From: a virus
Lineage: Duplodnaviria > Heunggongvirae > Uroviricota > Caudoviricetes
IMG/VR virus record: IMGVR_UViG_3300045988_001600
Coordinates: 1-20,380 of that record
DNA: 20,380 nt
Reading direction: 5' to 3' (one strand)
Below, one piece after another: positions 15,225-19,788 of this stretch. Numbering within the stretch: the stretch's first letter is position 1; every line of letters begins with the position of its first letter. The notes under the pieces are model-generated. The model searched no databases. It saw nothing but the letters and a program-made list of their open reading frames with translations, and was not told where the DNA came from. Position numbers and translations under genes: made by a program.

Positions 15225-17039
15225 ATGTCAGATATCACCGCAAACTTAGTGGTAGGGATGCCTGCGCAGCTTTTCACGCTGGCACGCTCATTTAAAGCAA
15301 ATGCCAACGGTAAAATCTATCTTGGGCTACCAGATACCGATCCTACAATCCCAGCGAATCAAATCCCTGTTTATATTGAAAGTGAAACTGGAGATCTGAT
15401 TCCAACTGCTCAGCCGATAGTTATTAACGCGGGTGGGTATCCTGTTTACAACGGGCAGATATCAAAGTTCGTTACTGTGCAGAATTACAGCATGGCTGTT
15501 TACGACGCCTATGGATCGCAGCAGTTCTACTTCCCTGACATTGCAAAATACGACCCAGATCAGTTAAGGCAACAGCTTGAGAGTAGTTCTGGTGCTGACA
15601 TAGTCATGACTGGATCAGCTCCATTCATTGTTAGAAGTGTTGGCGACATTCTAAAAGACATTCCTACCAATAAATATTTTGGTGCCAAATGTGATGGTGT
15701 AACTGATGATACAGTAGCAAATCAAACTGCTCTTGACTGGTCTGCTGATAACAAAAGAACTGTTCTTTTTGTTGGTAAGTCATGTACATCATCTAGGTTG
15801 GTTTTAAAAAGTGGAGCTCGGATGGAGAACATAGGTTCAATAGCTCCTAAAAACTTCACTGACACAGTTGTTATAGAGATAAAGGATGATGCCTGGAGGT
15901 CTCCATATAATGATGGGATAACAGCAATTCAGACTGGGAATCGGGTTCTTCTGAATAACATTAATATAGATCCGGACGAGGTGATAAATGCTGTTGGCAT
16001 TTATGGTACTGATGGTGCTGGCCCTGTAATTAATAATGCAAGAATCTTTAACATGAGGAATGGAGGTATTAATATTGAAAAGGGTTATGAGTGGAAATTC
16101 AATAATACATCAGTTGTAGCACCGGAAGACCAGCTTGGAACATCTGGCGTTAGTGGGATATTACACCGTACTTCTGATAGTATGTATATCAATACAACGG
16201 TAGTTGGATATCCTGTCGGCATGGAAGTTACAAGCGGAGCAAATGACATAGTTAACACACACGTCTGGGGGTTAGATGGAATTAGAACAACACGCGTGAT
16301 GTTAATTGGTTTAAAGCTTGGTGGCAGCTCAAATAACGTTATTAATTATTATTCTGACACGCCACATAAGCTTGACAAAACACAGCCAGCAAGTATAGCT
16401 AATGGTGGGATCGGATATGTAATATCTGGTTTCAATAACAACTTGGTGTGCCCAAGAGTCCTTTTTCATGTAAATGATGGTCCTAAGTATGGGAAGGTAT
16501 TTTACATTAGTGGAACGGAAAATAGCATTAGAGAACCTGTTAGTTCTGATGTTTCAGGTATCGAAGATGGTGGTGTGTATGTGTTTTCTGGTTCAGCAAC
16601 GCCAATCAATAATAATGTATCTGGTGGTAACTTACAAAGCTTCTACGTTTTCCCTCAGTCCACTGGATTCAACCCAACCATAAACGCACCTTGCACATAT
16701 ACTTCACAAATATACAGACATGAATTGACTCAGCGCAGCGTATCAGGAAGGTTAACTATTGAATGCAACATAACAAGCAACGTTGGATCCGGTGCGTTTT
16801 CAATATCTCTTCCCCCTTACCTAAGCTCATTCAAGGGTGATTGCACTGGCTCAATATTCACAATATTGAATAATACTATACGCGCTGACACCAACCTAAT
16901 TGAAGTTAGAGGGTATATTACTGGAGGTAAAATATTTTTTAGAAGGATCTTCAGAAGTGGATCTCCTGTTGATGTTCAGATAACAGATCTGATAACAGGT
17001 TATGCATCAATAGACTTGAGCTTTTCTTGTTGTTTATGA
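15225..17039 (+). CDS. Tailspike protein: P22-type head-binding domain fused to a different receptor-binding domain
   Basis: 604 aa from ATG 15225 (the track opens at 15177; GGAG sits 8 nt before 15225). The first ~115 aa ([34 protein letters not shown] ... YDPDQ) match the conserved head-binding domain of P22/Sf6 tailspikes as recalled. The rest is AT-richer and unrelated by eye to the P22 endorhamnosidase. Confidence 0.88.
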
Positions 17040-17091
17040 TTTTAATTTGATGCCGGATTGGGTTTTATTCTTTCCGGCACCAAAAAAATAA

Positions 17092-18519
17092 TCATTTACA
17101 TGGATTTATTCCGTAATATATTACAATATCATCTTTATATCTGAATATTGAGTAATATCTTGATGAAATCAATGGCTCTGATTTGATGCCACAAACCATG
17201 CGCAACATGCCGCTTTTAACAACGTTATTATAAAGTGCAACATTTTTTATGTTGTACTGTTGCATTATAGAAATTGATATCCATGGCACAGCCGGGCTAT
17301 ATATCTGCCTAATAAATTTGTTAGCAGACAGTATCTTCCCGGTTATCCGCGAATTATATATGTCTCCGTAAGCGTAAACATATCCCTTGAAATCAAGTTT
17401 AGATAGATCATTAGCTGCAAGTGAAATAACAAATTCCTCATACTTTCTTTGCTCTTTTATGGCATTCGAAAATAGAAAAGAAGTAGATAAGGAGAAAAAC
17501 AAAATAACAGATACGAATGCAGTGTAAGTATTTTTATTAAACGCCTTATAAAATGAATAAATGAACAATGCTATAGAAGCAGAAAGGCCAGACAATACCC
17601 TAACGTCTGTTATACCCTCCCTTAAAAGAAATGCAGGCCCAGTCATGGAAAGTAAAATTGCAACTGGGGATAAAGTAATAAATAAAATATTTACCACACC
17701 TTCATTTCTTGACTTTATGACATACGTCAAATAACAAAATAAAAAACACGCGGCACCTAAAATAACTATAAATTCATATAACTTGCCTACCAAGCCAAAA
17801 TAAAAGTATACCTTTTCTAGGGATGACATGAAAGATTTAATAATATCGGATGGGTCGATGTATGACGCCCTTCCTGAATTCATCTTGAAAAAATAACTTA
17901 TCAATATGAAGTATAATAAATATGATGATAAAAAAACTAAAAGAGATTTTATGTTTGATATTTTTGCATATTTATAAACTGCGTTACCTGCAACTAATGT
18001 TATAAATATGTTGGCGCAAGGCTGATACAGGCAAAGAGATGATACTAGAAGTATCACTGAAAAAACTATCGATACTTTTCTTTTTTCGTCATATATAAAA
18101 AAAGATAAAACACAAAGCGCTGTAGCCAATACCATAGTGAACGAGTCAAACTGATATGCAGCGTTCTGAATGAAAAATGGAGTTACAAAGATAGATGTCA
18201 AGAATAAAGAAAAAACGAATTTATTGTTTTCTTGAGATAATTTATCTGAAACATACCAAATTACAGCAGATGCAACTATCACGCCTGTTAGTAATGGCAT
18301 AGGTGCTGTATTAGGAAGCATTTTAAAGTTCAAAGAGAATATATGCATTAGGAAATCGGAAAGAGGTCTTCCCAAAACCCCCCACCCATCAAAAGAAAAC
18401 AATGATCTATCTAAGTCATCCCTGTAAAGAACATCCGCGGATATTATTGGATAGAAAAATATCGCAATTAAAAACAATGGGATGTAAAAATATTTAGAAT
18501 TAAACATTCCTATTTTCAC
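17092..18519 (-). CDS. GtrC-type serotype-specific O-antigen glucosyltransferase (polytopic membrane protein)
   Basis: 475 aa, very AT-rich, with many hydrophobic segments (F/I/L/Y-rich). Directly downstream of gtrB with overlapping start and stop, the standard third position of gtr cassettes. Assigned by synteny and membrane character, not motif. Confidence 0.7.
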
Positions 18520-19429
18520 CTTTCTTTAGTATGTACTTTGGTCTTTTTTTGGTTTCTATGTATATGCGTCCAATGTATTCACCAAGGACACCAATCCCAA
18601 TCAATTGAATGCCGCCAAGGAAAAGTATGGAAACCAACAGTGACGGGTATCCAGGAACACTATTACCGAAAAGAAGCTTATCTAAAATCATCCACGCGCC
18701 ATAAATGAATGACAGGCTGGCGACAGCAAGTCCGATGTATGTCCACATGCGCAATGGAAAAGTTGAGAAACTGGTGATTCCTTCAAGCGCGAGATTCCAC
18801 AGCTTCCAGCCATTGAACTTGCTGTCACCAGCTATGCGTTCTGCGCGAGCATACTCGACGACGTCAGTCTTTCCACCAACCCAGCTAAGTATGCCTTTCA
18901 TAAACAGGTTGCGTTCAGGCATTGATTTAATGTTCTCAACCACTTCACGCGACATAAGCCGAAAGTCTCCGACGTTTTCCTCAATCTTCGGATTGCTTAT
19001 TTTATTGTGGAGCTTATAGAACCACTCAGCCGTTTTTCGCTTCAGTCTGCCATCCGTTGAGCGGTCAGATCGTTTAGCAAGCACCATATCAGCGCCTGCC
19101 TGCCATTTTTCAATCAGTTGAGGTATTACCTCAATCGGGTCTTGCAGGTCAACATCAATAGGAATAACAGCATCGCCTGTTGCATGGTCTAACCCTGCAA
19201 ACAATGCTGGTTCTTTACCAAAGTTGCGCGTAAATGACAGCGGAACAACTAGCGGATCAGAAACAGCCAGAGCGTAAATTATTGACTCTGTAGAGTCTTT
19301 GCTGCCGTCATTTATGAAAACAATTTCCACCTCATATGGCTTCAACTCTTCGAGTTCACGTACCGTTTTATAAAAAATTGGTATCGCTTCTTCTTCATTG
19401 AAGACAGGAACTACAAGAGATATCTTCAT
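18500..19429 (-). CDS. gtrB: Bactoprenol glucosyltransferase GtrB (GT2 family)
   Basis: 309 aa. The sequence ([23 protein letters not shown] ... [14 protein letters not shown] ... DVDLQDP ... with C-terminal transmembrane segments) matches GtrB of Shigella and Salmonella serotype-converting phages as recalled. Confidence 0.92.
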
Positions 19430-19788
19430 TTCGCATCCCTAAAGACAATGAACTTTGAATATACGAAACCGCACACCAGGCTGATGGCGGAGAAAGTGAT
19501 AAGGGTTAGCATCGGGGGAAGTGCGCATCTATCAGCAGCCCATCCAACAGTTGCACTCAGTGTTCCCATGAACCCGACATATAACATGTAGCGCATCGTT
19601 GTAGTCGATGCTTTGAATGTGAATCTTGCATTCGCGAAGAAGCTAAAACTCACAGCCACAACGAAACCTGCGAAGTTTGCAAGAGCCTGATTGGTGTGCG
19701 CGGCATAGATACATACACCAAAAACCACCCAATGTATAAGTGTGTTCAGCACACCAATCGAGGTGTACTTTGCAAATAGCTTTAACAT
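19426..19788 (-). CDS. gtrA: GtrA, small membrane flippase of the O-antigen glucosylation system
   Basis: 120 aa, four hydrophobic segments ([31 protein letters not shown] ... [10 protein letters not shown]). Near-identical by recall to GtrA of Shigella flexneri converting phages. Stop overlaps the gtrB start. Confidence 0.92.

Follow-up and report, generated by a model that had tools for sequence, protein, structure and literature searches.

Does a prophage whose tailspike recognises an O-antigen also carry the enzymes that modify this very receptor? The question is raised by a 20,380-nt stretch of DNA (hereafter the window; positions 1–20,380 of IMG/VR virus record IMGVR_UViG_3300045988_001600, a tailed phage of the Caudoviricetes), in which a tailspike gene and a gtr glucosylation cassette meet at 15225–19788. 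An earlier interpretation from the letters alone (the sequence-only reading) had described the two as neighbours, both AT-rich relative to the backbone, and had proposed that the tailspike recognises the O-antigen that the adjacent GtrC then modifies. Their adjacency was confirmed at exact coordinates: the gene for a 604-aa P22-type tailspike (15225–17039, plus strand; Pfam and public gene calls) is directly followed by the convergent genes gtrC, gtrB and gtrA. Comparative evidence also supported the proposed shared target, a single O-antigen on which tailspike and GtrC almost certainly both act. This prediction draws on 87% identity between the receptor-binding domain (RBD) of the tailspike and the AV101 tailspike TSP3, on the O153 genotype of all complete genomes with this RBD family (9/9) or this gtrC (7/7), and on the joint exchange of RBD and gtrC. 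The pairing of the two is not obligatory, as strains TST3 and TBE6 depart from it.

The tailspike is predicted to target O153-type O-antigen

The RBD (15581–17039, plus strand; residues 114–604) is 87.2% identical over 491 aa to residues 158–648 of TSP3 (WJJ54145.1) from Agtrevirus AV101, with 90.6% nucleotide identity over 15678–17029. WJJ54145.1 is the TSP3 of the AV101 study, in which the purified protein gave translucent zones on O153 strains and TSP3 pre-treatment cut AV101 plating on an O153 host by ∼5 logs (PMC10791037). The resemblance of the TSP3 RBD to E. coli prophage proteins had already been noted there (PMC10791037).

The hosts of related prophages point to the same receptor. The O153-type wzy gene (query from lysogen F1005) is present in 80 of 5426 complete E. 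coli genomes (1.5%), one of them from a strain named CE-O153H30. All nine complete E. coli genomes with this RBD family carry it (Ecol_545, C1, FG31-1, PRO_A, F1005, 2017C-4173W12, TBE6, TST3, in which the wzy match is partial, and Ec-U18, which was counted by its identical Wzy protein), giving a hypergeometric P of 2e-17, or 4e-8 when only the four distinct integration sites (argW, sbcB, the yecA side and the ykgL side) are counted as independent. Similarly, each of the seven complete genomes with this gtrC is of the O153 genotype, and all seven are among the nine RBD carriers. Here, 'O153' denotes an in-silico genotype, and the naming of O153 and O178 is disputed in the literature. Taken with the TSP3 identity, these associations make it very probable that the tailspike targets the O153-type O-antigen. 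Since the carriers are of this genotype, the only O-antigen substrate available to GtrC in them would be the O153-type unit.

Some O153-type gene clusters showed irregularities. The wzy match in TST3 covers only 52% of the query (NZ_CP154406.1, 1182984–1183594) and that in TBE6 is 2 nt shorter than the query (NZ_CP154401.1, 3442136–3443300), hence these two strains may have a damaged O-antigen polymerase. We also considered whether F1005 and Ec-U18 might be rough lysogens, as PGAP annotates their wzx as a 'pseudogene' (incomplete, with 'hypothetical proteins'). This was rejected as an annotation artefact, because wzx of the O153-type cluster is one intact 404-aa ORF (24643–25860 of locus L004 and 6050–7265 of locus L020 for F1005 and Ec-U18, respectively). 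In both strains an IS1 element lies between wzx and gnd. The idea that O153 and O178 might be a gtr-dependent pair was dropped, as the literature is contradictory on whether they are one cluster or two and gives no glucosylated form.

The tailspike itself has the expected two-part organisation. The mechanical ORF spans 15177–17039, with Pfam Head_binding at its aa 17–129; the true start is Met17 of this ORF (15225), and the same 604-aa product is called on 19 public contigs. The first ∼113 residues form the N-terminal head-binding (adaptor) domain (15225–15580, plus strand), a full-length profile match to PF09008 (E = 1.2e-55). In a PDB sequence search this domain matched Sf6 gp14 and P22 gp9, with 56–70% identity to those domains by Foldseek. 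It is 97–100% identical among P22-like relatives irrespective of their RBD and is absent from siphovirus-type carriers. An AF2 model of the tailspike (mean pLDDT 80.6) has an all-beta, beta-helix core mostly above 90, and its best Foldseek matches in the PDB are all phage tailspikes (Sf6, P22, Dettilon, HK620 and CBA120 TSP2; probability 1.0). As modelled, the C-terminal domain is a right-handed parallel beta-helix receptor-binding domain.

Members of this RBD family (49–86% identity) are fused to at least three N-terminal adaptors, namely PF09008 (P22 head-binding), PF18668 (tail-spike N-terminal) and PF03906 (T7-type tail-fibre). The proteins span 580–950 aa and some come from Enterobacter cloacae and Proteus mirabilis. 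By these comparisons, the domain therefore circulates widely among phage morphotypes. One further protein (P0085, 437 aa) carries the annotation LysR-family D-serine deaminase activator (PF00126, PF03466) and aligns to 41% of the tailspike with 76% identity. Apparently this gene call runs from the remnant of a tailspike into an adjoining LysR-family gene. The latter may be dsdC, located close to argW, the attachment site.

RBD and gtrC are exchanged as one AT-rich cassette

If the tailspike and GtrC share a target, how are their genes inherited? The window was compared with MLI106K1, another O153-genotype host with a P22-like prophage. Identity is ≥93% up to ∼15559 and again from ∼18476, and falls below 75% in between; the replaced block corresponds exactly to the RBD and spacer together with almost the whole of gtrC. 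The RBD of MLI106K1 is unrelated and its GtrC has 49% identity, while its GtrB and GtrA are 100% identical to those of the window. Judged from these alignments, RBD and gtrC form one AT-rich cassette (∼15560–18476) that is swapped as a block between phage backbones, with the conserved adaptor domain flanking it on one side and the conserved gtrB on the other.

The same two cassette types were found on a second backbone. Siphovirus-type prophages (tape measure, TipJ) at the yecA site carry the type-1 cassette in 2017C-4173W12 (RBD 81%, GtrC 96%) and the type-2 cassette in TST3, giving a 2 × 2 comparison of two backbones (P22-like and siphovirus-type) and two cassette types. The N-terminal adaptor tracks the backbone and is unrelated between backbones, as do GtrB and GtrA (99–100% identity within, 83–93% between). 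The RBD tracks the cassette type, with identities across backbones of 78–83% (type 1) and 98% (type 2) and no relationship between types. The whole of GtrC likewise tracks cassette type (95–100% within, 43–58% between). Beyond these four combinations, an RBD of 75% identity is combined with a GtrC of 69% identity on a P22-like contig that is more distantly related. In each of the 11 tailspike loci surveyed, the next gene downstream is convergent and encodes an O-antigen modifier (GtrC or Acyl_transf_3).

Base composition agrees with these boundaries and narrows what the sequence-only reading had taken to be an AT-rich tailspike RBD and gtr cassette. The backbone (1–14753) has a GC content of 0.490, and backbone windows of the same size vary with a standard deviation (sd) of ∼0.022 and a minimum of 0.43. 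Both the RBD (0.391) and gtrC (0.321) are lower than every backbone window, whereas gtrB (0.435; ∼−2.3 sd) and gtrA (0.457; ∼−1 sd) are unremarkable, so the AT-richness of the gtr cassette is carried by gtrC. The AT-rich block is thus RBD plus gtrC, not the whole gtr cassette. The head-binding part of the tailspike is backbone-like (0.455). GC content at third codon positions (GC3) is nearly equal in the RBD (0.296) and gtrC (0.299), with values of 0.43–0.50 elsewhere, and the host O153 gene cluster (GC 0.319) is similar to gtrC.

Exchange also appears to involve virulent phages. AV101 and the P22-like prophage of TST3 share the RBD, its last codons and a non-coding stem-loop past the stop codon (L005 6270–6310 and L003 5277–5320, compared with window 17029–17091), which indicates recent virulent–temperate DNA exchange reaching beyond the coding sequence.

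GtrC is a candidate glucosyltransferase of a separate specificity

What would the modifier do? In the textbook model, GtrA, GtrB and GtrC account for undecaprenyl phosphate (Und-P)-glucose synthesis, its flip to the periplasm and serotype-specific transfer to the O-unit (PMC7685785). The window encodes a candidate for each role, all on the minus strand: gtrC (17092–18507; ORF 17092–18507/18519), predicted to be a serotype-specific membrane glucosyltransferase of 471 aa; gtrB (18500–19429), a predicted bactoprenol glucosyltransferase of 309 aa; and gtrA (19426–19788), a small membrane protein of 120 aa and predicted Und-P-glucose flippase. The ORFs overlap by 4 nt and 8 nt, and the operon adjoins the prophage att site. 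None of the three is disrupted, and several unrelated strains carry them with 100% conservation. GtrB belongs to PF00535 (GT2), with no NCBIfam equivalog reaching its cut-off, and GtrA to PF04138 (52 bits against a cut-off of 26). At the nucleotide level, gtrB and gtrA are 83–87% identical to their counterparts in SfI, SfII, SfIV, SfV and HF4s.

GtrC is a member of PF14264 (75 bits against a cut-off of 30) with at least 8 hydrophobic segments. The family alignment shows invariant D30, D31 and R34 just after TM1, which places acidic residues in the first periplasmic loop. The best PDB fold matches of its AF2 model (pLDDT 86.6) are all GT-C lipid-linked-donor transferases (PglB, STT3, DPY19, AftA, Emb, PimE and ALG6), with weak scores (best E = 2e-3, TM 0.3–0.4), and these fold matches are only suggestive of a GT-C architecture. 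The protein is 100% identical to GtrC of Ecol_545, 96% to the siphovirus-type copy and 49% to type 2. In the protein database there is one GtrC cluster at ≥90% identity (representative 95% identical) in E. coli, followed by relatives at 69%, 51% and 49%. Among isolated phages, no close characterised GtrC relative was found (identity ≤33%, mostly N-terminal), and a tblastn search returned 66 matching phage records from Salmonella, Enterobacteria, Enterobacter and Hafnia phages, with no Shigella phage among them. The lack of a Shigella phage match suggests that this GtrC represents a distinct specificity.

Signals around the operon were also surveyed. A simple scan of the minus strand upstream of gtrA (19789–19998) detected no consensus sigma-70 site. 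This segment is att-proximal phage DNA, and homology with argW-integrated relatives stops at 19998. The only GATC sites in this segment, at 19843 and 19936, are 93 bp apart. Salmonella-type gtr operons that vary in phase through Dam and OxyR have four GATC sites in two close pairs upstream of gtrA, and with two distant sites the window does not show this signature. GATC is rare across the whole window (53 sites against 79.6 ± 8.4 expected from dinucleotide-preserving shuffles; 100/100 shuffles had ≥53). The 52-nt spacer between the tailspike gene and gtrC holds a strong stem-loop (17046–17084; minimum free energy (MFE) −23.7 kcal/mol, z = −5.2), which is kept with the gtrC lineage in Ecol_545 and 2017C. 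An intrinsic terminator between the convergent genes was considered and rejected: a consensus scan found none and the structure has no canonical U-tract, hence it is termed a stem-loop only.

A model in which the prophage edits its own receptor

These elements suggest the following course of events. Homology and fold show that the N-terminal head-binding domain attaches the tailspike to the virion and that the C-terminal part is a beta-helix RBD. The RBD would bind, and probably cleave, E. coli O153-type O-antigen to start infection, in line with the TSP3 identity and the host genotype. P22-like tailspikes are trimeric enzymes with O-antigen-cleaving or -deacetylating activity, for which the translucent zones of purified TSP3 on O153 lawns give indirect evidence here. 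After integration, the gtrA-gtrB-gtrC operon would be expressed from the prophage. From their family membership, GtrB is predicted to load glucose onto undecaprenyl phosphate, GtrA to flip it to the periplasm and the serotype-specific GtrC to attach it at a single position in the repeat unit of O153. By analogy, this glucosylation would make the O-antigen a poorer substrate for the cognate type of tailspike, and the result would be less superinfection and less progeny re-adsorption by phages with the same RBD, AV101-like virulent phages included.

Confidence differs along this chain. Given that the tailspike targets it, glucosylation of the O153-type O-antigen by GtrABC is highly likely. Given both of these steps, impairment of the cognate tailspike by the modification is likely. 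For the whole model taken jointly (O153 receptor, GtrABC glucosylation and an impaired cognate tailspike) we put the chance slightly above even. The last step leans on two precedents. In P22, the phage's own alpha1-6 glucosylation blocks its own tailspike and the chromosomal alpha1-4 glucosylation does not, and in BTP1, GtrC shields the O-antigen against the phage's own tailspike, which is encoded convergently, and restricts both superinfection and re-adsorption (PMC4413052, PMC10883804). Such pair-specific protection fits the matched RBD–GtrC types and the polylysogeny of O153 strains, although a fit is not proof.

Several observations weigh against this model. On the receptor side, AV101 TSP3 also gave small zones on O8 (PMC10791037), and the O153 association is drawn from the complete genomes of relatives rather than from the window's own source genome. 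On the modification side, expression of GtrC, the sugar modified and the effect on the tailspike are predictions. No glucose side-branch is known in the published repeat units of O153 and O178. A review notes of O153/O178 only that they are one short of the expected number of glycosyltransferases. The pairing of RBD and gtrC is, moreover, not obligatory: in TST3 and TBE6 a tailspike with a 99.4% identical RBD adjoins an acyltransferase, and in Ecol_545 a 100% identical GtrC stands beside an RBD of only 82% identity. The window is itself a recombinant, TST3/AV101-like up to ∼17019 and Ecol_545-like from ∼17025. A five-way alignment, BLAST segments and sliding identity placed the crossover at 17019–17025, ∼15–20 nt before the tailspike stop codon and inside a 60-nt block (16969–17029) conserved in all variants, and by these comparisons the window's RBD/gtrC junction is a recent crossover. 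Co-transfer may also partly reflect where flanking homology lies, since the cassette types share no homology across the stretch that begins with the RBD and reaches the 5′ end of gtrC, so that both have to travel in a homologous exchange. Finally, polylysogeny for tailspike/modifier pairs directed at O153 is frequent among O153 hosts. In TST3, the P22-like prophage combines a type-1 RBD with an acyltransferase, and the siphovirus-type prophage a type-2 RBD with GtrC2 (L021, TST3 1982547–1992826). F1005 has a type-1 RBD with GtrC1 and, on a third type of prophage, an RBD2-like tailspike (78.6% nucleotide identity) with a convergent acyltransferase beside lysis genes (L022, F1005 1313667–1324575). 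Exclusion therefore cannot be complete across types.

Much of this could also be accommodated if the parts and the O153 target were the same and the tailspike simply tolerated GtrABC glucosylation, with no self-exclusion. The benefit would then lie in excluding other phages, in serum or immune evasion, or in altered colonisation, and adjacency and co-transfer would simply follow from the layout of the genome, with the tailspike gene last among the late genes, conversion genes filling the interval up to attP, and gtrB the only recombination homology that flanks the RBD on the right. The crossover exactly at the RBD/gtrC junction of the window and the polylysogeny of TST3 and F1005 for O153-directed pairs are in keeping with this, as is the slot after the tailspike, which holds unrelated modifiers (GtrC and different acyltransferases) beside related RBDs. 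The alpha1-4 glucosylation that leaves the P22 tailspike unblocked (PMC4413052) would be a parallel. However, in both experimentally tested systems, P22 and BTP1, the modifier protects against the phage's own tailspike. Furthermore, RBD1 always occurs with GtrC1 and RBD2 with GtrC2 on two backbones within one O-genotype, and host type alone does not require that. We consider tolerance rather unlikely.

Two further explanations question the function of one partner. The gtr operon might be silent, defective or directed at another acceptor, such as another Und-PP-linked glycan, and so be irrelevant to the receptor of the tailspike. The simple scan detected nothing promoter-like ahead of gtrA, and the GtrC type is uncharacterised, with ≤33% identity to any GtrC of isolated phages. 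We also know of no report of a glucosylated O153. Yet the three ORFs are intact and 100% conserved in unrelated strains, GtrC retains the invariant acidic residues of its family in the first periplasmic loop together with a GT-C-like fold, and gtrC is strictly limited to one O-genotype (7/7), as expected with an O-unit acceptor; we therefore judge this explanation improbable. Alternatively, the tailspike might use another glycan that co-occurs with O153 lineages, or need the glucosylated form. TSP3 specificity was assigned from few in-silico-typed strains and includes the small O8 zones, the RBD is 87% rather than 100% identical to TSP3, and the O153/O178 genotype naming is contested. Against this, carriers from diverse sources and with at least four integration sites share one wzy. 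In addition, the authors of the AV101 study report no match to any of its four TSPs among the prophages of their ESBL strain collection (PMC10791037), so the O153 host of AV101 presumably has no such tailspike prophage, which speaks against a need for modification by the cassette. The chance that another glycan or the glucosylated form is the receptor appears very small.

Implications of the proposed receptor editing

The model in which the prophage edits its own receptor has consequences for both phage and host. This prophage tailspike, of a kind common in E. coli, now has a concrete predicted receptor in the O153-type O-antigen, and its partner is an uncharacterised GtrC type confined to the O153 genotype. 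Evidence from the 2 × 2 comparison for the exchange of RBD and gtrC as one cassette across podovirus-type and siphovirus-type backbones is also new, and the pattern provides a clean case from nature in which the binding and the modification of a receptor are inherited jointly, a principle already established for P22, BTP1, Sf6 and related phages. GtrC may define a hidden O153 subtype that is invisible to wzx/wzy-based serotyping. Lysogens might resist O153-directed phages or tailspike reagents such as AV101 TSP3, which would matter for phage therapy of ESBL-producing O153 strains.

A broader hypothesis combines these points, and we advance it tentatively, as a possibility we would not yet favour. 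RBD plus gtrC would be a portable cassette that recognises and then edits a receptor and moves between podovirus-type and siphovirus-type prophages. O153-type E. coli would host at least two matched pairs (RBD1–GtrC1 and RBD2–GtrC2), each GtrC blocking only its own RBD type. GtrC would make an undescribed glucosylated O153 subtype missed by in-silico serotyping, and lysogens would resist AV101-like therapeutic phages.

Prophage context and other features of the window

The tailspike and gtr genes mark the lysogenic-conversion end of an E. coli prophage that is P22-like (Sf101-like) and integrated at sbcB. By ORFs and Pfam families, the window holds the late-operon half of such a prophage, with homologues of terminase, portal, scaffold and coat, then gp4, gp10, gp26, gp14, gp7, gp20 and gp16 in this order, and the tailspike as the final gene of the P22-type late operon. 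The last gene before the tailspike, on the minus strand, encodes a Mnt/Arc-type repressor (14843–15136; Pfam Arc and Repressor_Mnt; 86 or 97 aa on public contigs). The window closes in host DNA, and its last segment (19999–20380) contains the junction and host flank of the sbcB/dacD attachment site, recognised from the neighbouring host genes. On the source contigs, dacD, sbmC and yeeA are the next genes beyond gtr, and F1005 has a matching layout with integrase and sbcB at the opposite end of the prophage. The right end of the window is therefore attR of an Sf101-like prophage that occupies the sbcB site. An Rfam scan of the whole window matched no family.

Elsewhere in the window, a free-standing HNH homing-endonuclease gene (7410–7994; NUMOD4 and HNH_3) has been inserted between genes 4 and 10, and a 34-aa copy of the gene-10 N-terminus (7269–7373) lies ahead of it. 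Gene 10 (7933/7945–9360) is intact, and local GC falls to 0.41–0.43 (window 7269–7994). An intron splitting gene 10 was ruled out, because the gene is intact and the upstream piece is its duplicated 5′ end beside the free-standing HNH gene. Annotation of Salmonella phage UPF_BP1 shows this insertion too (95.7% nucleotide identity); HK620, Sf6, HF4s and N7 are without it.

Relation to known systems

The closest precedent in organisation is P22, which has the same order and orientation at the end of its late operon (the gp7, gp20 and gp16 ejection proteins, Mnt, tailspike, gtrCBA and att) and the same head-binding domain, and whose gtrABC is an established adsorption-blocking system (PMC10883804). 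The window differs from P22 in the parts that would determine specificity. Its RBD is unrelated in sequence to the P22 endorhamnosidase domain (the PDB sequence match is N-terminal only), its GtrC is only ∼32% identical and over the first 186 aa only, and its predicted host glycan is E. coli O153-type rather than Salmonella O:4,12. Furthermore, its integration site is sbcB and it lacks a Dam/OxyR-type GATC pattern upstream of gtrA. The Salmonella prophage BTP1 likewise has a convergent tailspike/gtr arrangement; its GtrC is thought to acetylate, whereas the GtrC of the window is a member of the glucosyltransferase family PF14264 and is accompanied by both gtrA and gtrB.

Sf101 shares both flanks of the region, on the head-binding domain side and on the att-proximal side, and presumably uses the same sbcB integration site as the window prophage. 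In Sf101 and Sf6 the tailspike is followed by an O-acetyltransferase gene (oacB or oac), in place of which the window has a three-gene glucosylation cassette. TST3 and TBE6 are E. coli relatives with this Sf6/Sf101-style acyltransferase layout and a 99% identical RBD. Agtrevirus AV101 shares the RBD, but it is a virulent member of the Ackermannviridae with another N-terminal adaptor and without modification genes. The gtr cassettes of the Shigella flexneri phages SfI, SfII, SfIV, SfV and SfX, together with K-12 CPS-53 yfdGHI, have gtrA and gtrB 83–89% identical in nucleotide sequence to those of the window, and the Shigella flexneri cassettes follow the same model of conserved GtrA and GtrB with a variable, serotype-specific GtrC (PMC7685785). 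The tailspike/modifier principle has already been stated for Lederbergviruses (PMC10408124). In architecture and logic, the locus is that of P22, BTP1, Sf6 and Sf101, and it adds one more example to a kind of system that is already known.

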